Part shown: in pieces, positions 21,001 through 55,233 of the stretch
Position numbering within the stretch: the stretch's first letter is position 1
Layout: every line of letters begins with the position of its first letter
Translations under genes and position numbers: made by a program
DNA from: Ignavibacteria bacterium
Lineage (GTDB): Bacteria; Bacteroidota; Ignavibacteria; SZUA-365
Length of the DNA: 64,000 nucleotides
Reading direction: 5' to 3'
Assembly: GCA_002869275.1 (NCBI GenBank)
Contig: PKTF01000131.1
Span: 4,892 to 68,891 of the forward strand
The notes under the pieces: model-generated
Databases searched by the model: none
Seen by the model: the letters and a program-made list of their open reading frames with translations, nothing else
Told to the model about the DNA's origin: nothing

Positions 21001-22334
21001 TTCCTCCGCCTGAACCCGTGATCGCCATCCTCACGCCGTTGCCTGTGTGCGACGGCGGAGAGATCATTCTCGGATTGACGGAGTCTTACGCGGCATACGC
21101 GTGGTCGACCGGATCAGACCAGAGCAGCATCGCCGTCACCAGCGCGGGGTACTACCGCGTACATGTCACGAACGATGACGGCTGCTCGGCGTGGTCGGAT
21201 TCAGTGTTTGTTGAATTCGCCCCCTTGCCCGATCCGGAGATTGCGCCAGACGGACCATTGTCGTTCTGCCAGGGCGATTCGGTACGCCTCTTCGCGACCG
21301 AGCTGTTTGTTCGCTACCTCTGGAACACCGGCGATACGACCTCATCGATCGTGGTGCGCAGCAGTGGAGATTATGCGGTTCGCGTCTGGACGGCAGACGG
21401 ATGCGATGGGCTTTCGAACGAGCTGACAGTGACGGTGTACGACCTCCCGCCGCTTCCGGTCATCACACGTGACGGCAGCATCCTGACCTCCACGCCTGCG
21501 GCGGAGTACCAGTGGTACCATGAGATCGACGGACGTTTCATCCGGATTCCCGGAGCGCAGGGTCAGGAGTTCACTGCGGTTTCCAACCGACGATATATCG
21601 TTGAAATCAAGGACAGATATGGCTGCACAGCCATATCCCTGCCGTACCGATGGACTGAGGAGATTCTGGCCACCTCCACGGTTTTGCTTCCTTCGCTCGA
21701 GGCATACCCGGGAGACATCGTGACCATCGATCTGCGTCTGGTGGAACAGCAGTACCTGTCGCTAATGGATGTGCATTCGTTCGAGGCGGAGGTGGCATTC
21801 AATGGCAGTCTCCTGGTTCCGACCGGAAGCACACCGCAGGGCAGACTTGAAAATGGATTTCGCATCATTCCGGTTGAGGGGGAATACGACAGCACCAGGC
21901 AGTTTCTCTCCCGCATGCAATTCCTGGCCACCCTGGGAAATGCCGAGTCGACACCGCTTCTCATCAGGCAGTTCTTCTGGAATCAACCCGATGTGGAGAT
22001 CACAACCATTGCCGGAGAGTTTTCGCTGGGAATCTGTCGTGAAGGCGGCGACAGGCTGTTCGATGCCACGGGGCAGCTCACGCTCGAGCCGAATCACCCC
22101 AATCCGTTCAATGCGATGACGATCATCACATACGAGATCATCGAACGCGGCCACACCGAGCTGTACGTGATGGACATGCTCGGCAGGAGGGTGGCGACGC
22201 TGGTTGCGGGTGAGGTCGAAGCCGGTCGTTACCAGGTTGCCTTCGACGCCGGGAGACTGCCGTCGGGTATGTATATCAGCGTGCTCCATACACCCACGCA
22301 GGTACGCATGCAGCGCATGAAATTGCTCAAATAG
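18033..22334 (+). CDS. Giant T9SS-secreted adhesin-like protein: choice-of-anchor L domain, Cys-containing tandem repeats, type-A C-terminal sorting domain
   Basis: Signal peptide. Residues about 30-260 carry the choice-of-anchor L signature (GDPDLANL...LDAAVLEFDFVP...FEYVFASEEYTEFVGSVYNDVFAFFISGPG). Two families of tandem repeats follow. The C-terminal about 80 aa match the Por-secretion type-A sorting domain (PNPFN...LYVMDMLGRRVATL...SGMYISVL...MKLLK). Confidence 0.85.
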   Translation: MKKHIRFLRTILIYAAALTVAFIVGEAQAQLSINGSIPLETLVRNHFIGGGAQVSNITYQGNAVSIGYFNGVRSNIGIDEGVLLTSGSIFYAIGPNTMDDITYPSFMPGDPDLANLVHFFTLDAAVLEFDFVPYQDSVHFEYVFASEEYTEFVGSVYNDVFAFFISGPGIVGKQNIALIPGTTTPVAINSVNHLEQVQYYINNYGGATVEYDGFTTVLKASAKVIPCQSYHLKLAIADVSDNLLDSGVFLKSGSFDAGNLFEVVAIQDAPEGGCVPGIIEVQRLGNVDNPLTLKYYVQGDATNGDDYTTIPDSITFSAGQSAIQIPINALRDSVKDGGEWVTIYIEDICGTGLVRDSIKILEIPDMELELSGDTVICIGSEITLRAQVAGGSNFLTLDWNGLGDSPELTIIPQISRPFAFSVFDSLTGCRLTDTVHVKVEKPPAVSAGPDKVICPGGSAILEGEVVGGTPPFQIVWTPMTALSNPGMLMPEASPSTTTTYILTVTSATGCVARDTVVVRVSAVVIDAGTDTTICNGSGLTIGGVAGGGVPPYTYQWEPAAEVGNPSLPYTTAAPTATTTYRLTVRSSNNCIAVDSVTITVSDIALDAGPDLRLCAGEARVIGDTAWTTHAPVSYVWEPEVGLDSRFIPTPTASPTVSTTYTVVATNRYGCVMRDTVYVEVNDLEIDAGGPHAICPGDSVQLAAAVLSGSTPYVFRWDAASSLSATDINNPFARPAMSTWYRLTVIDGAGCAATDSVLVTVWPLPTVEITPLGSPVFCLGDSVRLDAGSGFASYRWSTGETTRSITVRDPGWYQVAVTSADGCSAVSDSMEVIVSERPSPRITGPLSLCENEKGVYSVPEVPGSTYNWTVTGGFITEGHGTSSITVLFEDPGSYPIRIEQVFGSASCRGDTLITVTVHPNPEPVISANGPLAFCEGESVMLLAPAGFARYEWSTGDSTRQITVVGSGSYSVRVVSAEGCEGVSPPVEVTILPPPEPVIAILTPLPVCDGGEIILGLTESYAAYAWSTGSDQSSIAVTSAGYYRVHVTNDDGCSAWSDSVFVEFAPLPDPEIAPDGPLSFCQGDSVRLFATELFVRYLWNTGDTTSSIVVRSSGDYAVRVWTADGCDGLSNELTVTVYDLPPLPVITRDGSILTSTPAAEYQWYHEIDGRFIRIPGAQGQEFTAVSNRRYIVEIKDRYGCTAISLPYRWTEEILATSTVLLPSLEAYPGDIVTIDLRLVEQQYLSLMDVHSFEAEVAFNGSLLVPTGSTPQGRLENGFRIIPVEGEYDSTRQFLSRMQFLATLGNAESTPLLIRQFFWNQPDVEITTIAGEFSLGICREGGDRLFDATGQLTLEPNHPNPFNAMTIITYEIIERGHTELYVMDMLGRRVATLVAGEVEAGRYQVAFDAGRLPSGMYISVLHTPTQVRMQRMKLLK
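19150..20320 (+). repeat. Five tandem protein-coding repeats of about 75-80 aa (SprB-repeat-like C-x-G...GG-x-x-P-Y-x-Y-x-W ... TTY-x-LTV ... GC-x-x-D-x-V) inside the adhesin gene
   Basis: Read directly from the translation: ICPGGSAILEGEVVGGTPPFQIVW..., ICNGSGLTIGGVAGGGVPPYTYQWEP..., LCAGEARVIG...VSYVWEP..., ICPGDSVQLAAAVLSGSTPYVFRWDA... Confidence 0.7.
20320..21655 (+). repeat. Six tandem protein-coding repeats of about 72-80 aa (P-x-P-x-I ... FC-x-GDSV-x-L-x-A ... Y-x-WSTG-x-TT-x-SI-x-V ... GC) inside the adhesin gene
   Basis: Examples: FCLGDSVRLDAGSGFASYRWSTGETTRSITV, FCEGESVMLLAPAGFARYEWSTGDSTRQITV, FCQGDSVRLFATELFVRYLWNTGDTTSSIVV. The second and sixth copies are diverged. Confidence 0.7.
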
Positions 22335-24196: not shown

Positions 24197-25801
24197 ATGA
24201 AACGTCTTGTACTTTTTACAGCGGTGCTGACGATGCTCTGCTCCGCTTCAGCATGGGCGCAGGTACAGTATTCCGTCGGTAATTTCATGCGGTACGGCAA
24301 CGGTGAACAGACCGTCGGGGGCACGCCGCGTGCGAAGGAATACATCGAGAATCAGACCAACGTCCGACTGTTCTGGGATAATTTCACTGTCGGCTTCGAA
24401 TACCTGTATGACGATCCCCCTGAGTTCGGTCCCCGGTTTCAGGGTATTCGCAAACGCTATGTGGAGTTTGCAAAGAAAGGGCTCGAACTCCGCGCCGGTG
24501 ATTTCTATACTCTGTATGGCAAGGGACTCGCGATGAATCTCTTCGAGAATCGCGGGATCAATTACGATACCAGACTTGACGGTATCCGGGGGACATACCG
24601 CAACAGGCATATGAATGCCATTTTCGCAATGGGTACGCTGAAATATTATGACTTGCTCAATTCCGATCGCATCGAGCAGTATTCGGTGAAATCCGGACAT
24701 ATGGAAGTCAGGCCATTTCGTTTCATGCGAATCGGCGGTAGTATCGTCAGTGCGGATGGTGACCTGCCGATGGCGTTCGGGATGGACGAAGTCCATGCCG
24801 ATATCCCTGAATTCATGATGTCGTTACGGGGAATGGGCTTTGACGTCTTCGTGCAGCGTGCATGGAAGCGCTCGAGTATCTACAGTCCGACTGCGGACGG
24901 TGCATTCACCTCCTACGAACGTGATGGTGACGCCTGGTACGGAAGCGTGTCGTACACCGCGGATTTCGGACTCGGCATGACATTCGAATACAAGGATTAC
25001 CGCTTCGATGTTGTCGGTGAAGAAGAGCGTGATCCAAATCGTCCGGGGCGCATGCTGCCGATGCAGAACCCACCCATCGTGCACAAGGAGCATTACTTTA
25101 CTCTGCTCTCGCGTAATCCGCATGTCGTCGATTTTAACGATGAAATCGGTATGCAAATGGACGTGTTTTATTCGGTTTCTCCGAGTATGACGATCAACCT
25201 CAACGGTGCTGTGGCCAGCCGGCATGACGGGTATACATCCAGCAACGGCTTCCTCGTAACCCATGAGAGGGATGTGGAGTTCATGCCGACACTGGATGAG
25301 AAATTCTCACCATTCTACGAGCTGTACGGCGAGGTGGAATGGTATTTCACAGAGCACTCGTATGTGCGCGCAGCAGCCAACCGGCGTTACGATGCACCCT
25401 ACGAGGCCAATCAGGCGCATGAGCAGTCGAGTTGGACGTTCCCCATTCGTATCGAGTACATGCTCGATGATGAGTACAGCATCGGGGCCGCCTTCGAGCA
25501 GCAGTTCTACCACGACTCGTTCCTGGCGAAGCCTGACTATTTTAACGAGTTTGTCTCATTGACATTCGCAAAGGCGGCAGCATGGTCTGCCACGCTGCGT
25601 ATGGAATACACGACGGACGAAGCCGACCAGACCGGAAAGGACTTCTGGCGCAGTGTTGAGCTTGCGTACCGTCTCGGAAATGACCACCTCGCAACGATCA
25701 GTTACGGTACCGAGCGTGGTGGATTGATCTGCACCAGCGGCATCTGCCGCGAGATTCTACCCTTCGATGGAGTGAGGATTTCGCTGCTGTCGCAACTGTG
25801 A
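24197..25801 (+). CDS. Hypothetical outer-membrane beta-barrel protein with a C-terminal CxxxxC motif, probably co-transcribed with the TlpA-like gene (possibly DUF6029-like)
   Basis: Signal peptide MKRLVLFTAVLTMLCSASAWAQ. Aromatic-rich alternating strands. C-terminus ERGGLICTSGICREILPFDGVRISLL. Begins 4 nt after the tlpA-like stop. Confidence 0.55.
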   Translation: MKRLVLFTAVLTMLCSASAWAQVQYSVGNFMRYGNGEQTVGGTPRAKEYIENQTNVRLFWDNFTVGFEYLYDDPPEFGPRFQGIRKRYVEFAKKGLELRAGDFYTLYGKGLAMNLFENRGINYDTRLDGIRGTYRNRHMNAIFAMGTLKYYDLLNSDRIEQYSVKSGHMEVRPFRFMRIGGSIVSADGDLPMAFGMDEVHADIPEFMMSLRGMGFDVFVQRAWKRSSIYSPTADGAFTSYERDGDAWYGSVSYTADFGLGMTFEYKDYRFDVVGEEERDPNRPGRMLPMQNPPIVHKEHYFTLLSRNPHVVDFNDEIGMQMDVFYSVSPSMTINLNGAVASRHDGYTSSNGFLVTHERDVEFMPTLDEKFSPFYELYGEVEWYFTEHSYVRAAANRRYDAPYEANQAHEQSSWTFPIRIEYMLDDEYSIGAAFEQQFYHDSFLAKPDYFNEFVSLTFAKAAAWSATLRMEYTTDEADQTGKDFWRSVELAYRLGNDHLATISYGTERGGLICTSGICREILPFDGVRISLLSQL

Positions 25802-33609: not shown

Positions 33610-34947
33610 ATGCTGATTCGCTTTTCCCTTTTTTCGCTGCTGCTTACCGCACTGATTGTGTTGTGTGCCAACGCACAGCCACGTGGAGGGGGAGGCGTTC
33701 CTCAATACGGCAATCATCTCTATGCGGAGGTGCTGCAGTTCCCTTCGGATTCGGCAGGAGCCACGCGTGTGGATGCCTTCGTGCGTGTCGCCTACGATTA
33801 TGTGATCTTTGCTAAATCTGGAAATGTCCATCCGGATTCATTGTACGTCGCCGGGCTGGAAGTAAGTATCGACATGCAGCATGATGGGATGACCATGCAT
33901 TCGGTAAATCATTCTGCGGCTGTGTACACCGGCGATTATCAATCGACTACACTGCGAGATCGGTATCTCCTCCTGCGTCAAACGTTTTATCTTCAGCCCG
34001 ATCAGTACGAAGCGGTGATCACCGTATCGGACCAGGGATCGACGCGTAATCGAATACTGCGGCGTTCTATTCATGCTGTCGATCTCTCAAAGACTGGTAC
34101 GCGAATTGGCCTTCCGATCTCCATGCAGAGCATGGAGGGGTCCACAGACGGAACCTACTCCATCTACGGATTCGGTGGGACCTTGCCGTTTGCATCCGGC
34201 ACTATTCTCGGTGTCCCCGTGCCGGAATCCTGGCAGGGCGAATGGTCGGTGCGGTTGCTCCCTCTCGACGAAGATGGAGATCCGGATGGCGAAGTAGTGT
34301 TTGACGAAACGCTTCAGCCTGTTGAGGAACTGCAGAACACGTATCCGATGGCGTTGTCTGGCCTGGTCCCTGATTTTCGCTGCATGCCGGGCGCTTCGAC
34401 TGAGGGCAGTATCGTCGTCCTGTCACTGCCCATCGCTCGACATGATGTCGGCCGGTATCGTCTCACGGTGCGGTCTGTCGGCTCGGAAAAATCCGACTCC
34501 GTCACACTGGATACGCGGATCTACTGGCGCGGCATGCCTTATTCGCTGCGTGATATCGAGTTCGCCATCGATGCGATGCGTTACATCCTGACGCTGCAGG
34601 AATACGACCGCATGCGCAGCGGGAGTGAACGCGAAATGCATATTCGCTTCCGTCGTTACTGGAAGGAAGAGGACCCTACCCCTGAAACTGAGTACAATGA
34701 GCGGATGGTCGAGTACTTCCGGCGCGTCGATGCGGCGGTGGACCGTTTCCAGACCCTGTACGAGCGCAACGGCGCCATGACCGACCGGGGGAAGATCTAT
34801 ATCCTTTTTGGTCCACCAGAGGAAACACAGCGTGTTCTCAACAGCGATGATCCGGCGGAGGAGATCTGGTCTTACCCCTCATTGAATAAAACCTTTCGTT
34901 TCATCGATCGAAACAGAAACGGAGATCTCAGACTCTATGAAGAATAA
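33610..34947 (+). CDS. GWxTD domain-containing secreted protein
   Basis: Signal peptide. C-terminal NGAMTDRGKIYILFGPPEETQRV ... EIWSY matches the GWxTD signature block (Trp replaced by Ala here). Confidence 0.65.
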   Translation: MLIRFSLFSLLLTALIVLCANAQPRGGGGVPQYGNHLYAEVLQFPSDSAGATRVDAFVRVAYDYVIFAKSGNVHPDSLYVAGLEVSIDMQHDGMTMHSVNHSAAVYTGDYQSTTLRDRYLLLRQTFYLQPDQYEAVITVSDQGSTRNRILRRSIHAVDLSKTGTRIGLPISMQSMEGSTDGTYSIYGFGGTLPFASGTILGVPVPESWQGEWSVRLLPLDEDGDPDGEVVFDETLQPVEELQNTYPMALSGLVPDFRCMPGASTEGSIVVLSLPIARHDVGRYRLTVRSVGSEKSDSVTLDTRIYWRGMPYSLRDIEFAIDAMRYILTLQEYDRMRSGSEREMHIRFRRYWKEEDPTPETEYNERMVEYFRRVDAAVDRFQTLYERNGAMTDRGKIYILFGPPEETQRVLNSDDPAEEIWSYPSLNKTFRFIDRNRNGDLRLYEE

Positions 34948-40179: not shown

Positions 40180-40989
40180 TCAGGGCATGAGGGTGATCTT
40201 CCGGACGGAATTCTCCGTCACGGGCACGCGCATGTTGTTGGACGGGAACATGTACACCTGGTCGGTGTTGATCTCGGCTTCCATGTTGACGAGAACCCCG
40301 TTCTCCACTGCGAGATAGGCTTTCGCCTTCACTTCGATCGTCCCGGAAATCATCATCTCATTGTCGCCGCGAACGAGCTTTCCTTCCAGATCACTCTCTG
40401 TGGTGATCGTCACTTCATAGCTCTGGATGCCTTCGACTTCCTTCTCGCCAGTGACGGCGTAGGAACGTTCGTACTCGATAATGGTCTGACTTTCACCCGA
40501 TCCGCTCGTATCTACACCGTTGACTTCCCAGCTGGATCCGGTGGAGAGCTGATCCTTCTCAATTGTGGGGAAGAAATTGAGCATGCTGCGAAGGATACCT
40601 GCAGATTCGTCGTCGTACGCGTTGATCGACGTATCGACGTCGATGACATCTCCCTTGTGGTCGATTTCGAACTGGACGCTTTTTCCGCCGACGTCGGCTC
40701 CACGGGTCTGTGATCCTTCCGGGGTTTCGGCGATGATCAATGCGTTGTTCACCGTCAACTGCAGCCGCTGGTGGCCGTTCTCCAGCGGTTCAATGGAAGT
40801 GAGAACCGTGCTGATGGTTGTCTCGGAATTGATACTGATGCTCCGTCCCTGGACTTCCTGGATTCGCATGCTTGTTCCTTCGACCAGGTAATTGTATTCC
40901 TGTCCCTGGTCATAGCGGTATGTCGCTTCCTGTGCGCTGAGTCCTGCAGCGATGAGTAACAGTACAATCGTGGTAATGGTTGTACGCAT
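40180..40989 (-). CDS. Hypothetical secreted protein, distant paralog of the upstream gene
   Basis: Signal peptide MRTTITTIVLLLIAAGLSAQ. Shares a diverged C-terminal module with the upstream protein (S-x-WE..., EY-x-R-x-Y-x-V-x-GE-x-x-V-x-G, ...ISGT...ENG-x-LV). Confidence 0.5.
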   Translation of the reverse strand: MRTTITTIVLLLIAAGLSAQEATYRYDQGQEYNYLVEGTSMRIQEVQGRSISINSETTISTVLTSIEPLENGHQRLQLTVNNALIIAETPEGSQTRGADVGGKSVQFEIDHKGDVIDVDTSINAYDDESAGILRSMLNFFPTIEKDQLSTGSSWEVNGVDTSGSGESQTIIEYERSYAVTGEKEVEGIQSYEVTITTESDLEGKLVRGDNEMMISGTIEVKAKAYLAVENGVLVNMEAEINTDQVYMFPSNNMRVPVTENSVRKITLMP

Positions 40990-41007: not shown

Positions 41008-41907
41008 TTATTGAGAAATACGTTCCAATGTCGTTTTTGTGCTGACGGATGTCGGGATGACACTTGTCTGCGCGCCGAAGACGGCCCGCATCGATTCACG
41101 GCTCGTCGTGACGTCTACTTTTACCGGCAGGGCGTTTTCCTTGGCGATGTACATTTCGCCGGTACTGATGGTTTCATCTTCGGTGTATTCTTCGAGACGA
41201 TCGAATAGAATCTGTTCTTCCATCGTCGTTATGCTTTCCCATCTGATCCACCAGCACTCTGTTCCGTCCACAGTCTCTTCGCCGGCGACCGTGTATTCGG
41301 TGCTTCCAGCCAGATAGCGGATCCCGCGGCCCTTTCCGAACTGGGGGAGAGTCTTGTTCGGCTGCAGTGTGTCTGCGCGCGAATCTTTCCAGCTCATCCC
41401 GAGCGCGATCGGTCGGTCAGGGAGAACAGGCAGGATGGCGGCCCGCTGAGCGAATATCGCATCGGTGGCCCCGGGGCCCAGCAACTTCTCAGCCTCGAGC
41501 GGTTTCAGGGGCTGTGTTGCCTCGACACGGCCTTCAGTGGATTGTCGCACCTGTACAGGCTTTCGCGTCAGAAGATTCTGCATCAGTCGATTCTGACGTT
41601 GGATGCGCGGATCCTCGCTGTTTTCGTCTACAATCGCGGTATCCTGTACCGTGATGTAGGTGATGGCGTCCGCGGTTGTGTTCTCTGCGGTGATCGTGAA
41701 ATAGCGCGTCACCTGTCGGTCGATTTCCGTACTGCGACCGTCATTGCTCTGCGCAAGTGCGCTGGTTTGCTCGACCTGCTTGTATTTGAGAGCGAGGCCT
41801 GTGGGCAAATCGTACTTCAGCAGCACCGACTGGGCGCTGACAGTGACAGACGTGATCAGGAAACACACGGGAAGAATAAAGGAGAGTCTCATCAGCCTCG
41901 CAACCAT
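41008..41907 (-). CDS. Hypothetical secreted protein, distant paralog of the downstream gene
   Basis: The track ORF starts at 41997; the signal peptide begins at MVARLMRLSFILPVCFLITSVTVSAQS (ATG at 41907; alternative start 41892). C-terminal block TEYTVAGEETVDGTECWWIRW...ISTGEMYIAKENALPV aligns with the 40180-40989 protein. Confidence 0.5.
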   Translation of the reverse strand: MVARLMRLSFILPVCFLITSVTVSAQSVLLKYDLPTGLALKYKQVEQTSALAQSNDGRSTEIDRQVTRYFTITAENTTADAITYITVQDTAIVDENSEDPRIQRQNRLMQNLLTRKPVQVRQSTEGRVEATQPLKPLEAEKLLGPGATDAIFAQRAAILPVLPDRPIALGMSWKDSRADTLQPNKTLPQFGKGRGIRYLAGSTEYTVAGEETVDGTECWWIRWESITTMEEQILFDRLEEYTEDETISTGEMYIAKENALPVKVDVTTSRESMRAVFGAQTSVIPTSVSTKTTLERISQ

Positions 41908-42061
41908 ACTGAATACAATCGAACAACCTCTAAAATACGAAAGAAAGATCTGCTGACACAGGGAGAAATGCAGCACTGCGGACGGAGGCGCGTCCATGCT
42001 CTTTCTTACAGCATCCGGCCATGAAATGTTTCACGTAATCCGCTGAAATGCCTCGGTAATC

Positions 42062-43789: not shown

Positions 43790-43965
43790 GAAATCAAAAA
43801 ATGCTGGTGATGAAGTAACCCAATATACGAAAGCTGTGTCATACTCGTGACGCCCATTTCCCGCATGCGACCTTTTGGCTTGACTCGCCGGTCATATGAC
43901 GCTATTATTGAGTTGATTTACAGTAATGAATCATGACATACATCGTTTGCACCGCAGGTACACTC

Positions 43966-46900
43966 ATGCCTTCATCCTTACGCTTTTCTTTCGTGGTATT
44001 TCTCATTCTGATGCTGCTCGCCCCATTGAGCGGACAGGCGCAGTATTTCGGCAAGAACAAGGTGCAGTACACGGATTTTGAATGGTACTACATTCAATCG
44101 CAGCATTTCGACGTGTATTACTCCAACGACGGGTACGATCTCGCTGCGTTCACGGCCAAGGCTGCTGAGGAAGCCCTTATCAGTATTCAGAAAACACTGA
44201 ATTTTCAGATCAGTGCGCGTATTCCGTTCATCGTCTACAACTCGCACAATGATTTTCAGCAGACCAACGTCGTGGGATCGTATCTGGAAGAAGGCATCGG
44301 TGGAGTGACGGAGCTGTTCAAGAACCGGGTCATCATTCCGTTCGAGGGTAATTACAGCCAGTTTCGGCATGTGATACATCATGAGCTGGTTCACGCCGTC
44401 ATCAACGAGATGTTCTATGGCGGTTCGCTGCAGGCGGCCGTGACCAACCGTATCCAGTTGATACTGCCGCTGTGGATGAATGAGGGACTTGCGGAATATG
44501 AGGCGCTCGGCGGGTGGGATACCGATTCCGACATGTTCATTCGCGATGCCGCGACGAGCAACTACCTGCCTCCGATTCCCTACCTCTACGGCTATTTCGC
44601 ATACCGTGGTGGACAGTCCGTGTGGTGGTACATCTCGCAGACCTACGGTGAACAGAAGGTGGGAGAGGTGATCAACAGCATCCGGTCTTCCCGGGGCATC
44701 GACAAGGGATTGAAGAAGTCCCTCGGTCTGACCCTCGAAGAACTTTCCGAACGCTGGCTGAGAGAGCAGAAACGCATTTATTATCCGGACGTTGCGACGC
44801 GAGAATCTCCGGTGGATTTTGCGAAACGGCTGACCGATCACAAGAAGTCGGGAAGTTTTTACAATACCAGTCCGGCCATTTCGCCCTCGGGCGACCGCGT
44901 GGCTTTCATTTCGAACCGGGATGATTTTTTCTCGGTGTATGTCATGTCAGCGATCGACGGTGGATCGGTTCGCAAGCTGATAGAAGGAACGAATACCAAC
45001 GATTTCGAGGAACTGCATCTGCTGACGCCCGGATTGTCGTGGTCGCCCGATGGAAAGTACATCGCGATTGCTTCGAAGGCCGGTGCCAATGACGCCATCA
45101 GTATCGTGGATGCCGAAAGCGGCGACTATGAGGTGCTGCCGGTATCGAAGGACGGAATATTTTCAGTGCAATGGTCACCCGATGGACGCAGCCTCGCATA
45201 CGTGGGGAATACCGTCGCGCAATCGGACATCTGGGTGTACGACCTGGAAAGCAAGTCCACGGTGAAAATGACAAACGATGTGTTTTCCGACGCTGATCCC
45301 ATATGGTCGCCAGACAGCAAGTCCATCTATTTCACCTCCGACCGCAAGGCGTTCCTCCGTCCCGAAGATATCCCCGAAGGCTTCGATATTTTCGACCATG
45401 ATTATTCTCAGATGGACCTGTATTCCCTGGACGTGGAGTCGGGAGAAATCACCCGGATCACCAATACTCCGAAAGCCAGCGAATCGAATCCCCTCGCAGC
45501 CCGAGATGGAAAGCGTCTCATGTTCATCTCAGACCGGAACGGTATCAAGAACCTGTTCGTGCACGATCTTGAAAGCGGCAGGGAATACCCCATCACCAAT
45601 TCGCTGTCGGGTGTGTACCAGGCATCGATCTCCGCCGATGGAAACAAACTCGTGTTTTCATCCATGTACGAAGCAGGGTTCGACATCTTTCTCATGAAGT
45701 CTCCGTTCGAGGACGAAGCCGTCGTCGATCTGCTGCCGACGCTGTATGTCGAACAGCAACTGGAATCCCTGGAGATGCCGCTACCCGCCGGGGGTGAGCT
45801 TGCCAGTACATCGTCGGTGGGCCTCGACGGTTCGGCGGATCCGACCGAGTCGCTGCAGCACAGCGATGAGGTTGTCGTCCAGCTCGGAGCTCAGGAAACT
45901 GGCGTCGCCGATAGCACCGGCCGGCCATCGAGAACAGGCGACCGTATGCTTTTCGGCAGCGATCTCGGAGGTTCGCGTGAGAACGCCAGAGCGCAGGCTT
46001 TTTCGCTGCAGAACTTCGTCAACGAGGAAGGCGATTTCGTCATCAACAAATACAAGCTGAGCTTCTCGGCGGATCTGGTCTACGGCAACGCAGGGTACAG
46101 TACGTTCTACGGCGTGCTCGGGACGACGCAGATGGCGTTCAGCGACATGCTCGGGAACCATCAGATCCTTTTCCTCACCAACCTGATCGGTGATCTGAAA
46201 AACAGTGATTACGCGCTCGGGTATTATTATCTGCCCGACCGGATTGACTGGGGTATCAACGGCTTCCACAGCGCACGTTTCCTCCTGGCTTACACCGGCG
46301 GACTGTACGAGGACCTCGTGCGATATCGGCAGTTCGGCTTCGGGCTATCCGCAGCGTATCCATTCGACAAGTTCAATCGTATCGAAGGATCGCTGACATG
46401 GATGAGCCTCTCGCAGGAGAATCTCGATCGCCCGGATCTTCCCATCAGTGAATTTTCCGTGATCGTGCCCAACGTGGGGTACGTGCATGACAATACGCTC
46501 TGGGGGATGTGGTCGCCTGTCCGTGGATCGCGCTACGAGATGCGCGCTTTTGGCAGTCCGGGAATCGGCAGCAGGCCGCTTTCGTTTTTCTCCCTGACTT
46601 TCGATTACAGAAAGTACTATAAGTTCTGGGGAGATTTCTCCATCGTTCTGCGCGGTTCTGGCGGCGGCAGTTTCGGACGCAATCCGCAGCGCTTCTTCAT
46701 CGGCGGTACCGAAAACTGGATCAACCGCACGTTCGAAAATGGTCGCATTCCCATCGACAGTGAAGAGGACTTCGCGTTCCTGACAGCGGCGCTGCCGCTG
46801 CGCGGTTATAACTACAACGCGCGTCTTGCAAGCCGTTACGGACTCGGCAACGCTGAGATCCGTTTCCCGGTCGTCAAGTATTTCCTCGGCGGCGTGCTTC

Positions 46901-47154
46901 CATACATCCTGCAGACGGTCAACGGCGCAATCTTCCTCGACGTGGGAACGGCCTTTGACGAAATCGATGCATACCGTGCGTTTACCCGAGATGAAAACGG
47001 TAACCTGATGAACCAGGACCTGCTGATCGGTACCGGTATCGGAGCGAGGATGTGGTTCCTCGGCTTCCCGCTGAAATTCGATGTGGGTTGGTCTTACAAC
47101 GGAGCCGGCTTCTCGACGCCCATCTATTATTTCTCGCTGGGCGCGGATTTCTGA
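43966..47154 (+). CDS. Mosaic outer-membrane protein: HExxH metallopeptidase-like module, PD40/TolB-like beta-propeller repeats, C-terminal Omp85/BamA-like barrel
   Basis: Signal peptide MPSSLRFSFVVFLILMLLAPLSGQAQ; the track ORF starts 33 nt earlier. HVIHHELVHAV zincin motif. Repeated SPDG/SPSGD blocks (SWSPDGKYIAI, QWSPDGRSLAYV, IWSPDSKSIYFTSDR). C-terminal LRGY ... GIGARMWFLGFPLKFDVGW ... SLGADF barrel signature. Confidence 0.65.
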   Translation: MPSSLRFSFVVFLILMLLAPLSGQAQYFGKNKVQYTDFEWYYIQSQHFDVYYSNDGYDLAAFTAKAAEEALISIQKTLNFQISARIPFIVYNSHNDFQQTNVVGSYLEEGIGGVTELFKNRVIIPFEGNYSQFRHVIHHELVHAVINEMFYGGSLQAAVTNRIQLILPLWMNEGLAEYEALGGWDTDSDMFIRDAATSNYLPPIPYLYGYFAYRGGQSVWWYISQTYGEQKVGEVINSIRSSRGIDKGLKKSLGLTLEELSERWLREQKRIYYPDVATRESPVDFAKRLTDHKKSGSFYNTSPAISPSGDRVAFISNRDDFFSVYVMSAIDGGSVRKLIEGTNTNDFEELHLLTPGLSWSPDGKYIAIASKAGANDAISIVDAESGDYEVLPVSKDGIFSVQWSPDGRSLAYVGNTVAQSDIWVYDLESKSTVKMTNDVFSDADPIWSPDSKSIYFTSDRKAFLRPEDIPEGFDIFDHDYSQMDLYSLDVESGEITRITNTPKASESNPLAARDGKRLMFISDRNGIKNLFVHDLESGREYPITNSLSGVYQASISADGNKLVFSSMYEAGFDIFLMKSPFEDEAVVDLLPTLYVEQQLESLEMPLPAGGELASTSSVGLDGSADPTESLQHSDEVVVQLGAQETGVADSTGRPSRTGDRMLFGSDLGGSRENARAQAFSLQNFVNEEGDFVINKYKLSFSADLVYGNAGYSTFYGVLGTTQMAFSDMLGNHQILFLTNLIGDLKNSDYALGYYYLPDRIDWGINGFHSARFLLAYTGGLYEDLVRYRQFGFGLSAAYPFDKFNRIEGSLTWMSLSQENLDRPDLPISEFSVIVPNVGYVHDNTLWGMWSPVRGSRYEMRAFGSPGIGSRPLSFFSLTFDYRKYYKFWGDFSIVLRGSGGGSFGRNPQRFFIGGTENWINRTFENGRIPIDSEEDFAFLTAALPLRGYNYNARLASRYGLGNAEIRFPVVKYFLGGVLPYILQTVNGAIFLDVGTAFDEIDAYRAFTRDENGNLMNQDLLIGTGIGARMWFLGFPLKFDVGWSYNGAGFSTPIYYFSLGADF

Positions 47155-47175
47155 TATTCCCGAGGTTGTCATTCA

Positions 47176-47213
47176 TCGCCCTGTTTACGAAGTTGACAGG
47201 GCGATTTTTTTTT
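47176..47213 (+). terminator. Rho-independent terminator between the mosaic outer-membrane-protein gene and asd
   Basis: CGCCCTGT ...loop... ACAGGGCG followed by ATTTTTTTTTATT. Confidence 0.65.
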
Positions 47214-47224
47214 ATTGGAGCACC

Positions 47225-48238
47225 ATGGATACCTATACAATTGCCGTCGTCGGAGCTAGCGGACTCGTAGGAAGGAAAATGCTGCAGGTTCTCGAAGAAC
47301 GGGATTTCCCCGTCAAGGACCTCCGGCTCCTGACCTCCGCACGTTCCGCCGGGATCGAGCTGACTTTTCGCGGGAAGTCGTATCGGACGGAAGAAGTTTC
47401 CGCACGCGCCTTCGCGGACGTGGATATAGCGTTGTTCTCTGCAGGGAGTGATGCGAGCAGGCAATGGGCTCCGGTCGCCGTGAACGCCGGCGCGGTGGTG
47501 ATTGACAACAGCAGCGCGTATCGCATGACCGATGGCGTGCCGCTCATCGTGCCTGAAGTCAATTCCGGCGACCTCCCTGATGCCGGGCCCCGTATCATCG
47601 CGAATCCCAACTGTTCCACGATTCAGATGGTCGTAGCGCTCAAGCCCCTGCACGACCGCTATGGTCTGCACAGGGTAGTCGTGACAACCTATCAGTCCGT
47701 CAGCGGGGCGGGGAAGCGTGGTGTCGATCAGCTGCAGGCTGAGCTCGACGGAGGAGTCGCGGAGAATCCTGCTTTTCCGCATCCTATCGTGGAGAATGCG
47801 ATTCCACACATTGCCGCTTTCAATGAGAGCGGGTTCACCGTCGAAGAGGAAAAAATGATCAACGAGACACGGAAAATACTCGGTGACGCGCAGTTGAACG
47901 TTTCACCGACCTGCGTCCGCATTCCTGTGCGTTCCAGCCACAGCGAGGCCCTGCATATCGAGATGCGCTCCTCCTTCGAACTCGAAGACGTGCGATCCAT
48001 GCTCTCCGCCTTTCCAGGTATTACCGTGATAGACAACCCCGCCCGTATGGAGTATCCACTGGCGCGGAATGCGGCGGAGAAGGACGACGTATTCGTCGGC
48101 CGTCTTCGGAGAGATCCTTCGGTGGAACATGGGCTCATCATGTGGGTGGTCTCTGACTCGCTTCGCAAGGGGGCTGCAACGAACGCGGTACAGATCGCTG
48201 AGTTATGGCTGTCGCTTCTCCCCAGCACAGGGAAATAG
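47225..48238 (+). CDS. asd: Aspartate-semialdehyde dehydrogenase
   Basis: IAVVGASGLVGRKMLQVL (NAD(P) binding); active-site Cys in IIANPNCSTI; conserved His near the C-terminus. Start at the ATG at 47225 (the track ORF is N-terminally extended). Confidence 0.9.
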   Translation: MDTYTIAVVGASGLVGRKMLQVLEERDFPVKDLRLLTSARSAGIELTFRGKSYRTEEVSARAFADVDIALFSAGSDASRQWAPVAVNAGAVVIDNSSAYRMTDGVPLIVPEVNSGDLPDAGPRIIANPNCSTIQMVVALKPLHDRYGLHRVVVTTYQSVSGAGKRGVDQLQAELDGGVAENPAFPHPIVENAIPHIAAFNESGFTVEEEKMINETRKILGDAQLNVSPTCVRIPVRSSHSEALHIEMRSSFELEDVRSMLSAFPGITVIDNPARMEYPLARNAAEKDDVFVGRLRRDPSVEHGLIMWVVSDSLRKGAATNAVQIAELWLSLLPSTGK

Positions 48239-51551: not shown

Positions 51552-54224
51552 TCAGAAGGCGAAGCCCGCGGAAACGTCCACTCGCATTCCATCGCGGGAG
51601 TTGCCGAGTGACGCGCTGATCGTGAAGTCACGTGATACAGGGGCGAGCCAGAGCCCCGCTCCGTATGTCGCATGCCACTGATCTGATTCCTCATCCTCAA
51701 GATAAACGCGCCCGCTTTCGGCGAATGCCAGTATTCCGAGTTCGGATGGGATGATCCAACGCACGTTCGCGAGAAAGCCCCTCCATTCCGCACCGCCATA
51801 AACTGCGGCGTCTCCGGCATAGCGGTTGAGGTCGTATCCCCTGGCGGATTCGATTCCACCGAGAAATGCGGATTCGAAAAAGGGATAATTGCCGCGGTTA
51901 TACTGGCCACCTGCGCGGAGTGCCAGTGTCCAGTCCGTCAGCAGCCTGGCCGAAAGGTAGGTCCGTAGATCGGCGTCAAACGTCTCAAAACGGGAAATGA
52001 GATCAAACAGCTCGGGATAGTGACGAGCTCCGAGACTGAGGTAATATCCGGATGTCGGCCATGTCGCGCTGCTGCGTTGATCGATGGTCAGATCGAGTCC
52101 GACACTCCCGAGTATCATCGGATCGTATCCGTAGGGTTGAATCGTCATGAGATACAGGGCTTCATCATCGGTGTCATTACGGACATGCCGCAGGGAAATG
52201 TCGGTGGAGAGGGTAACCGTCTCACTCAGAAACAGGTGGAGCGCAGAATTCAGGTAGATCTGACTTTGTTTGACGGTATACTCATAGCCCGGATCCTCGA
52301 GCTTGACCGAGTGATTTCCGGCTCCGAAATAGTGCAGGACCTTGAAGTCGGAGAAGCCGGCGGTGAGCGTCACGCTGTGTCTCCGCAGCAATGCCCTCGT
52401 ATCCAGGTTGAATTCCACTTCTCCCAGCAGGCTGGTCGGGGCGAATCCGCCTGTCAGACTCATCCGGTACGCATAGGGATCGCATTTGAAGCCGTACCGA
52501 GTGTATACGGGGCCGCCTCCCAGCAGGATGCCGAGATCGCCGTTGTATGCGCCCGAGATTCCAGGAAGCAGGTCCCACCCCCAGTCGCGCAGGTCAGGTT
52601 CATAGATCTGCTGCGGCGTTTCGGGACTGGGATATTCATTTCTGTCAACAGCGGTTGATGCTCCGCTTGTAATCGCTGTGCGCTTCCCATGATCGTAGAA
52701 ATACGTTTTTGTCTCCGCGCTGGGGATAAACGGGAGGAGTCCCCACAGGCAGCCGTGGACCACGGAGCTGTCGATCAGTCGGTCGCGTCCCGAACCGCCG
52801 AGAACGCGGATGGTCGGACCGTAATCGCTTTCACCGCGCAGAATCGCCACATCGTCGCCGCCTTCCAGATATATCCTGATTTCGTTCGTTTCATCTGCCA
52901 GGTAAACGCGTTCGTGAAAGGGCGGCAGTTCCGGATCCTCCATTGATCGTCCGGCGACGGCGACGCTGCCGTCCGGTCTGCGCATGATCTCCACGAGCTC
53001 ATCTTCCTTGCTGCCGTGAATGTTCACTTCTCGGGCCAGTTCCTCGTAAAAAACACGCACAGCCTCCGGGAGTTTGTCCCGCCGGTTGAGAAGGGTGGAG
53101 AGCAGATGATCGCTTTCCTCACCATGCAGCGCAGCCGGAAGCCTGTTCACGGCATCCGCCAGCAGGTCGTCGGTGAGTACCGACTGCACATGCAGTGCCA
53201 GCGAATCGTACGCGCCACGTGAGAGGGCCGGGAGGTACCGACGATCGAGGTGTCGTCCACTGTAGGTGAGGTATTTGATGCCGGGATAGTCGTTGTCGCA
53301 GCTTTCGATTTGAGGTACCACCACGGTTGACAGCCACGGGATCAGTCCGTCGTACCGGCAGAAGGCCTGGTCGCGGTCTCGCGGAATGGGGTGCCACCAC
53401 CTGATGCCATCCTTTTCGAAGCGCGCCCAGCGCCACTGATCGGTGTGTCGGTCCCAGTCTCCCATGAACATGTCGACGATGCGCGCTTTCAGGTATTCCC
53501 GGGCATCGACCCTCTCGTCGGTGTTTTTTTCCAGTTTTTCGAACATCGTGAATGTTCCCACGACTTTGTCCGATCCACCGAAACCATCGTCGCTGTCCTC
53601 ACGTTCGTCCGGATGCACTTCGAGCATACCCAGGAGACCCGCGAAGGAGGCGCGGAATTCCCCCAGTTCAGGGCTATCGGGCAGAATGACGACCGTGGGC
53701 GCGGCATTGAGCGTTCCCGTGCTTTCAAGTATCGGACTGGCAACGAGTGCCCCGAACGGATTTGCCGTGCTGATCAGATCCTGCATGATATCTGATACGA
53801 ACGTGTTCCTCAGATTTTCTTCCAGGATCTTGGAAGGATCCTTATTCAGCGAACGGAACTTGTACTCGAGTCCGTCCGCTGCTTTGAAACGCAGTGATCT
53901 GGTCTGGAACCCGCCGCCTTTACGGTATGCCCGGAGTCCGCCTGCAAATGCGGAGAGGTCGATAACGGGTACGCGGATGGGGATGGTCCAGTGTGCTCTC
54001 CAGAGGTCGCCGAAAAACAATCGGTGCAGCGTCCCGGCAGCGTATTCCTCTCCGGGAATGACCATACGCCACTCCATGACGTCCACGTCGGGATTGGTCT
54101 GTTCTGGTCGGGTTTCCTGCTGAGCGATCAGAGACGGGTGTCCGACAATGACAATGGCACACAGGATCGGTATGACCTGGCTGAGCAGCTTTCGAAAGCG
54201 ATCCAACGCCTGAGAACTCTGCAT
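51552..54224 (-). CDS. Omp85/BamA-like outer-membrane barrel protein with large unknown N-terminal domain
   Basis: Signal peptide. About 500-aa N-terminal region with Trp/His-rich blocks (MGDWDRHTDQWRWARFEKDGIRWWHPIPRDRD). C-terminal barrel FLGGIESARGYDLNRYAGD ... VDVSAGFAF. Confidence 0.6.
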   Translation of the reverse strand: MQSSQALDRFRKLLSQVIPILCAIVIVGHPSLIAQQETRPEQTNPDVDVMEWRMVIPGEEYAAGTLHRLFFGDLWRAHWTIPIRVPVIDLSAFAGGLRAYRKGGGFQTRSLRFKAADGLEYKFRSLNKDPSKILEENLRNTFVSDIMQDLISTANPFGALVASPILESTGTLNAAPTVVILPDSPELGEFRASFAGLLGMLEVHPDEREDSDDGFGGSDKVVGTFTMFEKLEKNTDERVDAREYLKARIVDMFMGDWDRHTDQWRWARFEKDGIRWWHPIPRDRDQAFCRYDGLIPWLSTVVVPQIESCDNDYPGIKYLTYSGRHLDRRYLPALSRGAYDSLALHVQSVLTDDLLADAVNRLPAALHGEESDHLLSTLLNRRDKLPEAVRVFYEELAREVNIHGSKEDELVEIMRRPDGSVAVAGRSMEDPELPPFHERVYLADETNEIRIYLEGGDDVAILRGESDYGPTIRVLGGSGRDRLIDSSVVHGCLWGLLPFIPSAETKTYFYDHGKRTAITSGASTAVDRNEYPSPETPQQIYEPDLRDWGWDLLPGISGAYNGDLGILLGGGPVYTRYGFKCDPYAYRMSLTGGFAPTSLLGEVEFNLDTRALLRRHSVTLTAGFSDFKVLHYFGAGNHSVKLEDPGYEYTVKQSQIYLNSALHLFLSETVTLSTDISLRHVRNDTDDEALYLMTIQPYGYDPMILGSVGLDLTIDQRSSATWPTSGYYLSLGARHYPELFDLISRFETFDADLRTYLSARLLTDWTLALRAGGQYNRGNYPFFESAFLGGIESARGYDLNRYAGDAAVYGGAEWRGFLANVRWIIPSELGILAFAESGRVYLEDEESDQWHATYGAGLWLAPVSRDFTISASLGNSRDGMRVDVSAGFAF

Positions 54225-54363
54225 GGGGGGGAGCCGTATCTACATGTCACATGAATTGCTTCAATATACAATGAAAATGGAATATCATGTTTTCCCATGC
54301 AAGCATGTGTATCCTCCAGTCTTGTTCTGTATCAGGCAGAAAGTCTATTTTTCACCTGTGACT

Positions 54364-55233
54364 ATGTATAACCTCCACTCGATACGACCTGCCGGCAATG
54401 CCGCCGCCGTGCTCCTGCCAGTCCTGTTGTTCACCGCGATTGTTCTTCCCCTTTTTGTGAGCGGATCCTTCGCTCAGGAGGCGGAGGAACGGGGGATGGA
54501 CGACATCATCATTGATGACGTCATCATCCTCGGAGAGGATGGACTCGGGTACCTGCTCGCACCGTTGAGTTTCTCCGGAAGCGACTGGGCACTGACAGGC
54601 GGACTGCTCGGAGGCGGCGGGCTGCTCTTTGCACTGGATGAAGACATCCAGGCAATACCGAGACGAAACCAGAACGAGGACGTGTTGGACGTCACCCGGA
54701 CATTGAACTGGGGGGGACATCTGCCGAGCGTGGAAATCGGGACGGGCTTCGTCTACCTCACCGGACTGCTCTCGGGAAATGAGGAAATCCGCGTCACGGG
54801 GCGCATGCTCGCACAGACGCTGATTTATTCGGGATCGGTGTATCTCGTTCTGCGCAGGCTTGTCGGACGGAGCCGACCGGAGGTGCGGGAGAGTGCGTAT
54901 GATTTCGGCTTTCTCCGTTCCGGGGATCAGCATTACTCGTTTCCCTCGGGGCATACCGTCGTGGCCGTCTCATGGGCCACGGTGCTTGCGGGACGCTTCG
55001 ACCACTGGGCGGCTTCCTTGCTCCTGTATTCGGCAGCCGGCGCGGTGGGACTGGCACGTATCTACCAGGACTTTCACTGGGCATCCGATGTTTTTACCGG
55101 AGCACTCATAGGATTTTCGGCAGGCATGTTTGTACGCCGGCAGGAAGAGCGCCGCCAGGCGCAGACAGGGGAAACGTCGTCCTGGTCGCTGCTGCCGACG
55201 GGAAACGGATTATCGCTCATTATTCGCCTATAG
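54364..55233 (+). CDS. PAP2-family (type 2 phosphatidic-acid phosphatase) membrane phosphatase
   Basis: KLVGRSRP ... PSGHT ... SRxxxxxHWASD are the three PAP2 motifs. Start chosen at the ATG at 54364 to avoid an out-of-frame overlap with the upstream gene. Confidence 0.7.
   Translation: MYNLHSIRPAGNAAAVLLPVLLFTAIVLPLFVSGSFAQEAEERGMDDIIIDDVIILGEDGLGYLLAPLSFSGSDWALTGGLLGGGGLLFALDEDIQAIPRRNQNEDVLDVTRTLNWGGHLPSVEIGTGFVYLTGLLSGNEEIRVTGRMLAQTLIYSGSVYLVLRRLVGRSRPEVRESAYDFGFLRSGDQHYSFPSGHTVVAVSWATVLAGRFDHWAASLLLYSAAGAVGLARIYQDFHWASDVFTGALIGFSAGMFVRRQEERRQAQTGETSSWSLLPTGNGLSLIIRL

Follow-up and report, generated by a model that had tools for sequence, protein, structure and literature searches.

The question raised by the locus described here is whether a zinc peptidase, a β-propeller and an outer-membrane barrel encoded as a single polypeptide represent an uncommon mosaic, and which function such a chain might fulfil in the bacterial envelope. 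The gene occupies positions 43966 to 47154 in a stretch of 64,000 nucleotides from an Ignavibacteria bacterium (contig PKTF01000131.1 of assembly GCA_002869275.1), referred to below as the window. The observation is real, but the architecture is already published, abundant and present in databases, and the rarity attributed to it by an initial annotation, made from the sequence alone, is wrong. What can be added is that the strongest constraint falls on the peptidase rather than on the propeller, that the catalytic residues of this peptidase hardly vary even in homologs with 29% identity, and that the lid-lock motifs of the barrel are kept. This conservation leads to an active, membrane-tethered protease as a hypothesis to be tested, and the published description of these proteins as a 'BamA-BamB fusion' is argued here to be incomplete.

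Overall organization of the polypeptide

The peptidase module, the propeller and the barrel are confirmed to reside in one chain, where they follow a signal peptide and where the barrel is joined to the preceding modules via a disordered linker. The product of the gene is 100% identical to a public metagenome protein of 1062 residues (P0001); all three modules announced for a polypeptide of 1060 residues were recovered, in a chain whose length is 1062 residues. The longest open reading frame extends from 43933 to 47154 on the forward strand, position 43966 being an internal ATG, and the upstream ATG at 43933 adds 11 residues. The features of the gene are the following:

43966..47154, forward strand: complete target gene, 1062 residues plus stop (from the list of open reading frames)
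43966..44040, forward strand: predicted Sec signal peptide, residues 1-25, with the cleavage site placed by eye between MPSSLRFSFVVFLILMLLAPLSGQA and QY
44047..44835, forward strand: gluzincin metallopeptidase module, residues 28-290 (Pfam Peptidase_MA_2)
44380..44394, forward strand: HExxH zinc-binding/catalytic motif, H139, E140 and H143 (sequence conservation)
44482..44496, forward strand: E173-G-L-A-E177 within W-x-N-E-G-L-A-E-Y, with E173 the presumed third zinc ligand and E177 the presumed ligand-orienting acid
44836..45720, forward strand: six-bladed PD40/TolB-type β-propeller, residues ~291-585 (PD40 match and TolB structural match)
45721..46020, forward strand: low-complexity linker, residues ~586-685, predicted disordered
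46021..47151, forward strand: Omp85-type 16-strand outer-membrane β-barrel, residues ~686-1062 (DSSP on the AlphaFold2 model, Foldseek)
46798..46809, forward strand: loop-6 lid-lock motif L945-R946-G947-Y948 (conservation; motif definition from PMC11358297)
46933..46947, forward strand: FxDxG motif F990-L-D992-V-G994 in the 13th predicted strand, residues 985-997 (conservation, AlphaFold2 model)
47122..47151, forward strand: C-terminal β-signal-like last strand ...YYFSLGADF, conserved across homologs, with an aromatic end

Conservation was evaluated in a close set of homologs (n = 49, 52-100% identity) and in a divergent set consisting of 109 full-length representatives and the target, i.e., 110 sequences (29-49% identity). 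Motif counts in the divergent set were taken per alignment column; counting with rigid regular expressions gave misleadingly low values. The signal region, in which no lipobox cysteine can be read from the sequence, is poorly conserved (0.32), and family-wide conservation begins at F28-G29-K-N-K-V-Q-Y, just past the predicted junction MPSSLRFSFVVFLILMLLAPLSGQA/QYFGKNKVQY. The segment preceding the barrel is predicted as disordered in the AlphaFold2 model, with a predicted local distance difference test (pLDDT) below 50 at residues 604-678; its conservation amounts to 0.28 in the close and 0.05 in the divergent homologs, and its length ranges from 18 to 188 residues across the family (median 83).

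The gluzincin module

The N-terminal module matches the Pfam family Peptidase_MA_2 at residues 66-264 (E 5.2e-13, 49.7 bits for a gathering score of 32.4), and the same family was matched by all of the 45 homologs scanned. The segment HVIHHELVHAV, initially read as a zincin HExxH motif, indeed deserves this name, as H139 occurs in 110, and E140 and H143 in 109 each, of the 110 divergent sequences. A similar constancy is observed for W170 (109/110), E173 (109/110), G174 (110/110), E177 (110/110) and Y213 (109/110), and residues H138, H139, E140, H143, E173, G174 and E177 are invariant in the 49 close homologs. In both close and divergent homologs, conservation is strongest in the peptidase, ahead of all other modules of the chain. 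In gluzincins, the Glu residue of W-x-N-E-G serves as the third zinc ligand and the acid located four residues further on orients one of the His ligands. Because of its W-x-N-E-G context, of the gluzincin ExxxD/E pattern and of the fold of the module, E173 probably plays the role of a zinc ligand, and the pair of E173 and E177 fits the ligand pattern of the gluzincins, in keeping with the earlier suspicion that the glutamate of NEGLAEYE could be a third ligand.

No solved relative was found when a profile of the peptidase module was compared with the PDB sequences. Owing to the silence of such PDB sequence searches on both the peptidase and the barrel, a fold comparison was needed, which disclosed a thermolysin-like catalytic fold for the module; the HExxH region thus aligns to gluzincin folds and the zincin assignment survives. 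The best structural matches include M9 collagenases and the M30 lugdulysin, all of them secreted enzymes. However, the module shares only 10-17% identity with gluzincins of families M9, M30 and M1 (collagenases, lugdulysin/hyicolysin, and aminopeptidase N, ERAP1 or tricorn factor F3, respectively), and it cannot be assigned to any of these three MEROPS families. Typical M1 enzymes possess a GxMEN exopeptidase motif, an HExxH-X18-E spacing, an N-terminal β-domain and a C-terminal helical domain. An identification as M1 aminopeptidase was rejected, since the target exhibits GG(V/F)TE instead of GxMEN and 29 residues instead of 18 between HExxH and E173, in a module of about 260 residues devoid of flanking domains. 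As judged from its intact active-site residues, the gluzincin is most likely catalytically competent.

The GG(V/F)TE loop (residues 112-116, positions 44299-44313), located 23 residues upstream of HExxH, is itself nearly invariant, with G113 kept in 109, T115 in 104 and E116 in 107 of the 110 sequences, and lies inside a low-confidence segment of the AlphaFold model (pLDDT <50, residues 105-118). GxMEN occupies the matching position in M1 aminopeptidases, and the loop may be an element recognizing the end of the substrate.

The propeller and the barrel

The middle of the chain, for which at least four TolB/PD40-type blades had been anticipated, builds a six-bladed TolB-like propeller. TolB is the top match for residues ~354-575, by sequence as well as by structure, with sequence alignments that reach only TolB residues ~174-383, the propeller half of that protein. 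Profiles of the whole family and of its N-terminal part, compared with the PDB, matched TolB and other propellers only, and the score against the NCBIfam TolB equivalog TIGR02800 is 137.2 bits for a cutoff of 343.15.

The C-terminal part, announced as an Omp85-type barrel of about 350 residues ending in SLGADF, corresponds to this description. In the predicted structure, DSSP delineates 16 long strands between residues 700 and 1058, as expected for such a barrel, strands 11 and 12 being separated by a long loop, and Foldseek superimposes the model on the BamA barrels of many structures of the β-barrel assembly machinery (BAM), with E ~1e-10 over 408-445 columns. Omp85 barrels are marked by two lid-lock motifs, (L/M)RG(W/Y) in loop 6 and FxDxG in strand β13 (PMC11358297). 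Residues R946, G947, F990, D992 and G994 of these motifs are invariant in the close set, and are kept in 106, 105, 107, 106 and 99, respectively, of the 110 divergent sequences, in which the final alignment column is occupied by F, Y or W in 100 cases. The target thus resembles BamA and TamA by its 16 strands, its loop-6 and β13 motifs and its C-terminal aromatic residue, but differs from them by a lack of POTRA domains, which were found neither in the target nor among the top Pfam families of the 45 homologs, by the absence of any match to NCBIfam BamA, and by a score below the Pfam Omp85 threshold. Of the domain models proposed for the protein, Peptidase_MA_2 and PD40 were matched, whereas the Omp85 model PF01103, unmatched in the target, was matched by 18 of the 45 full-length homologs (best E 9.6e-14) and, according to precomputed annotations, by many other homologs of the whole-protein search. 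On the basis of the predicted structure, the target is considered as a member of a non-POTRA Omp85 subfamily.

A known subfamily and its distribution

The Omp85/TpsB superfamily has been split by Heinz & Lithgow in 2014 into ten subfamilies, one of which is called 'WD40-like' or 'WD40-Omp85' (PMC4104836). Its members, modelled on TolB (2w8b/2ivz) and on BamA/TamA (4k3b/4c00), consist of PF07676 PD40 repeats with TolB as the closest propeller, followed by PF01103, without any POTRA domain, and were read as reminiscent of a BamA-BamB fusion (PMC4104836). In addition, Table S3 of the same work contains a column 'best aminopeptidase hit' listing 1z5h (factor F3), 4kxd, 3qnf (ERAP1), 4fgm and 4ar1 (collagenase) with 98.7-99.4% confidence, for carriers such as Rhodothermus, Salinibacter, Caldithrix, Chloroherpeton, Cloacimonas and Myxococcales (PMC4104836); these templates are essentially those recovered independently here by fold comparison. 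Rhodothermus marinus and Salinibacter ruber occur in the 2014 tables, which list members such as D0MEQ5 and Q2RZZ9, and the main text treats the propeller only, the peptidase being left to the supplementary column (PMC4104836). The target is considered an ortholog of this subfamily, an assignment that rests on identical architecture and templates: the same three parts occur in the same order and without architectural difference, a TolB-like propeller precedes the barrel, and an aminopeptidase/collagenase-like module stands at the extreme N-terminus in both. One paper of 2024 ascribes 'divergent WD40 and peptidase domains' to this group of Omp85 proteins (PMC11358297), and another counts the group among the subfamilies that 'have not been well characterized' (PMC11116518).

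About 60 WD40-like Omp85 sequences were available in 2014 (PMC4104836), compared with thousands now. A whole-protein search in which 8,000 candidates were scored gave at least 5,285 proteins at E ≤ 1e-5, the best 120 of which all measure 917-1106 residues and possess the same domain set. When one genome per species was retained, at least 582 relatives were confirmed, mostly from Ignavibacteriota, Bacteroidota and Kryptonia-type genomes. An exhaustive search of 1.84 billion representatives with the peptidase-module profile yielded 1,210 clusters (50% identity) at E ≤ 1e-30; among the best 150 of these 1,210 clusters, 109 are represented by proteins of at least 900 residues with the module at residues ~20-300. 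The peptidase module thus resides mostly in proteins of ~1,000-1,100 residues, and most of the shorter representatives end at arbitrary points of the architecture, like fragments. The thousands of full-length homologs indicate that the fusion is old, stable and abundant, and a combination found in at least 582 species genomes and 1,210 peptidase clusters, and catalogued as early as 2014, can no longer be called uncommon. In the databases, the homologs bear inconsistent names, e.g., 'Tol biopolymer transport component', 'biopolymer transporter Tol', 'DPP IV N-terminal domain protein', 'BamA/TamA family protein' and 'peptidase MA family metallohydrolase'.

Some of the shorter representatives depart from the common scheme. 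Eight proteins of 574-845 residues (P0139, P0155, P0141, P0138, P0179, P0184, P0199 and P0169) align to the target only up to residues ~571-632, the end of the propeller or the linker; they may consist of peptidase and propeller without any barrel, or possess a different C-terminal part. In P0147 (519 residues), the peptidase seems to be joined to the barrel end without a propeller.

Possible function and alternative interpretations

The target is probably a periplasmic peptidase-propeller unit tethered to the membrane by its Omp85 barrel and involved in the processing or quality control of envelope proteins. Following Sec export, the protein would become integrated into the outer membrane through the 16-strand barrel at its C-terminus; this barrel keeps the loop-6/β13 lid-lock typical of BamA, TamA and FhaC. 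The flexible linker of variable length would then tether the peptidase-propeller unit, most likely on the periplasmic side, with the gluzincin (HExxH and E173) packed beside the six-bladed TolB-like propeller. As in S9 peptidases and in tricorn, where propellers have this role, the propeller probably binds or filters substrates, and the unit would likely cleave unfolded proteins or peptides along the inner side of the outer membrane. Envelope proteins in an unfolded state, or peptides, are plausible substrates, and the barrel might be a mere anchor or might also engage them. Omp85 barrels have their N-termini in the periplasm, and TolB-type propellers are periplasmic; for both reasons, and because of the periplasmic enzyme of PlpD, the unit probably stays in the periplasm. 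Of this picture, the identity of the domains, the integrity of the active-site residues and the membership in the family are shown by the present data, whereas the placement in the periplasm, the part played by the propeller and the nature of the substrates are inferred.

Two known proteins offer a comparison. BepA, an M48 HExxH metalloprotease with a TPR domain, acts in the periplasm at the BAM complex in the quality control of outer-membrane proteins. The likeness is only a functional analogy, that of a periplasmic HExxH protease whose repeat domain brings it to an Omp85 machine, since BepA belongs to another peptidase family, uses another repeat fold and is a separate soluble protein instead of a fusion. 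PlpD, a patatin-like Omp85, resembles the target by the association of an N-terminal hydrolase and an Omp85 barrel in one chain, the barrel serving as an enzyme scaffold. However, PlpD consists of a patatin phospholipase, one POTRA domain and a short helical linker, whereas the target displays a zinc peptidase and a propeller, no POTRA domain and a long disordered linker; neither patatin nor POTRA was matched in the target by Pfam, which sets it apart from the type Vd/PlpD proteins. The enzyme domain of PlpD has been shown experimentally to be periplasmic (Hanson et al. 2024, PMC11116518) and, as the one enzyme-Omp85 fusion of tested topology, PlpD probably supports by analogy the periplasmic placement proposed here.

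Several points weigh against this placement and this function. The target lacks a POTRA domain that would mark the periplasmic side, and the disordered linker of 18-188 residues is long enough to thread a barrel. The target itself gave no PF01103 match at E ≤ 1 in the Pfam scan. No solved relative of the peptidase is detectable by sequence, so that its substrate specificity cannot be deduced from that of an enzyme already studied. The gene neighbourhood gives no pointer to a substrate in the form of a conserved operon partner, the sets of neighbours differing between lineages, and no experiment on the WD40-like Omp85 subfamily was found in the literature searched.

The linker and the missing POTRA domain would also suit a display of the enzyme at the cell surface, in which the barrel would export its own N-terminal passenger according to the original type Vd model so that a protease, either still tethered or set free, would help the cell to acquire nutrients. 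We regard this as unlikely, even though the linker between passenger and barrel is long, unconserved and predicted as disordered, though secreted enzymes such as M9 collagenases and the M30 lugdulysin are among the closest structural counterparts of the peptidase, and though such a route has been raised for the enzyme-bearing 'Metallo' Omp85 subfamily by analogy with the patatin-like Omp85 (PMC4104836). The type Vd precedent has been overturned in the meantime, the PlpD enzyme being periplasmic and export after folding through a 16-strand barrel being judged energetically unfavourable (PMC11116518). The conserved lid-lock motifs, moreover, imply a closed barrel lumen, and the periplasmic habit of TolB-type propellers points in the same direction. 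Surface enzymes of Bacteroidota usually leave the cell by type IX secretion, and a probable cargo of that system (sub-threshold Por_Secre_tail) is encoded nearby. The interpretation of Heinz & Lithgow (2014), already in print, is that of an assembly factor, a BamA-BamB-type insertase in which the propeller would be a docking platform and the zincin-like module a binding or chaperone domain (PMC4104836). Such a role agrees with the insertase/translocase motifs and the BamA-like fold of the barrel, and with a large conserved protein showing a faint TamB match upstream of the gene in 54 of 80 loci. It is nonetheless improbable to our mind, as the retention of all gluzincin catalytic residues in 109-110 of the 110 sequences and the strongest constraint on the peptidase would be unexpected for a purely structural domain; in addition, the propeller is six-bladed like TolB and not eight-bladed like BamB (for the BamB fold, see PMC11358297), and the TamB match stays far below threshold (23.5 bits for 825) without support from Pfam. 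Insertase and protease roles are not mutually exclusive.

The database annotation, which would place the protein in the Tol-Pal system as TolB or as a 'Tol biopolymer transport' component, is very unlikely to be right. It derives from homologs named 'biopolymer transporter Tol' and from TolB as the top sequence and structure match of the propeller; yet the score reaches 137 bits for an equivalog cutoff of 343, the target lacks the N-terminal domain of TolB, nothing in TolB corresponds to the flanking peptidase and barrel, and no tol or pal gene is adjacent to the target. A bolder proposal than the membrane-tethered periplasmic peptidase, possible though rather doubtful, is that of a single-chain outer-membrane processing machine, in which the lateral gate of the barrel would engage nascent or stalled β-barrels to be trimmed or destroyed by the gluzincin, or in which the barrel would truly export the enzyme. 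The first version, if true, would be the covalent equivalent of the quality-control partnership between BAM and BepA/DegP, and the second would restore a type Vd-like route without POTRA; either of them would add a new function of the Omp85 scaffold across much of the Ignavibacteriota, the Rhodothermia-type Bacteroidota and other phyla.

Genomic context

The window corresponds to an ordinary chromosomal region of a Bacteroidota-type organism, with gyrB, mnmE, pdxA and ppk, genes for RNase G, for a Ctp protease and for TonB-dependent receptors, and a probable cargo of type IX secretion. An Amidohydro_3 gene in divergent orientation borders the target, and asd lies downstream. The longest open reading frame of asd (47081-48238, forward strand) overlaps the end of the target by 74 bases, while the conserved part of asd starts at an ATG near 47225 (MDTYTIAVVGASG). 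The gap of ~70 bp up to this start contains no terminator-like site, so that a co-transcription with the target is possible; a scan for promoters and terminators around the target gave results no better than those of shuffled sequences. Three Omp85-like barrels had been reported in this neighbourhood, and both neighbours of the target indeed match PF01103:

38450-40054, reverse strand: another barrel protein, 535 residues (PF01103 E 2.6e-13; partial sub-threshold DUF5686 match)
51555-54224, reverse strand: another barrel protein, 890 residues (PF01103 E 2.7e-14; ShlB E 5e-5)

When the three barrels were compared, one pair reached 25% identity (E 8.5e-5), and no significant similarity linked the remaining pairs. 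Tandem duplication was ruled out by this weak or missing pairwise similarity, and the three barrels are only distant paralogs. In the 890-residue protein, the ~640 N-terminal residues give no Pfam match and no POTRA domain was detected; its gene abuts a divergent PAP2 phosphatase gene (54223-55230, forward strand). Beside the 535-residue barrel, a protein of 269 residues (40183-40989, reverse strand) shows a weak, sub-threshold match to 'adhes_NPXG' of two-partner secretion (E 4e-5, 23.5 bits for a cutoff of 29.1), and both could form a small TpsB/TpsA-like pair. The next protein (41011-41997, reverse strand, 329 residues) gave no matches.

The block formed by the 535-residue barrel, the two hypothetical proteins, the amidohydrolase, the target and asd is common, in the lineage of the window itself, to loci L001-L004, with orthologs 58-75% identical. 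Most of the Ignavibacteria-type loci, found among L004-L080 (e.g., L029:3868-5964 and L056:32-3637), are organized differently: rnr (RNase R) lies directly upstream on the same strand at a median distance of 19 bp (57 loci), whereas prs, L25, pth and an open reading frame for a lipoprotein-like product of 222 residues occur downstream. Beyond RNase R, 2.2 kb upstream and on the same strand, a protein of at least 1200 residues is encoded in 54 of the 80 loci. Its identification as TamB was not retained, in view of the absence of any Pfam match and of a score of 23.5 bits for a cutoff of 825 against NCBIfam NF047952 (E 1e-5), and is left as a hint; the protein displays no similarity to the 1433-residue protein of the window. 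As all these neighbours are housekeeping genes and their sets vary from lineage to lineage, no functional partner emerges.

Other genes of the window also encode envelope or surface proteins. The 1433-residue protein (18033-22331, forward strand) comprises Ig-like, PKD and Calx-beta domains with a sub-threshold Por_Secre_tail (E 5e-4), which suggests that surface proteins of this organism travel by type IX secretion. Two further proteins are of the envelope type, a DUF6029 protein matched over its full length (24197-25798, forward strand, E 1e-35) and a GWxTD-domain protein (33610-34944, forward strand, E 2.7e-13).

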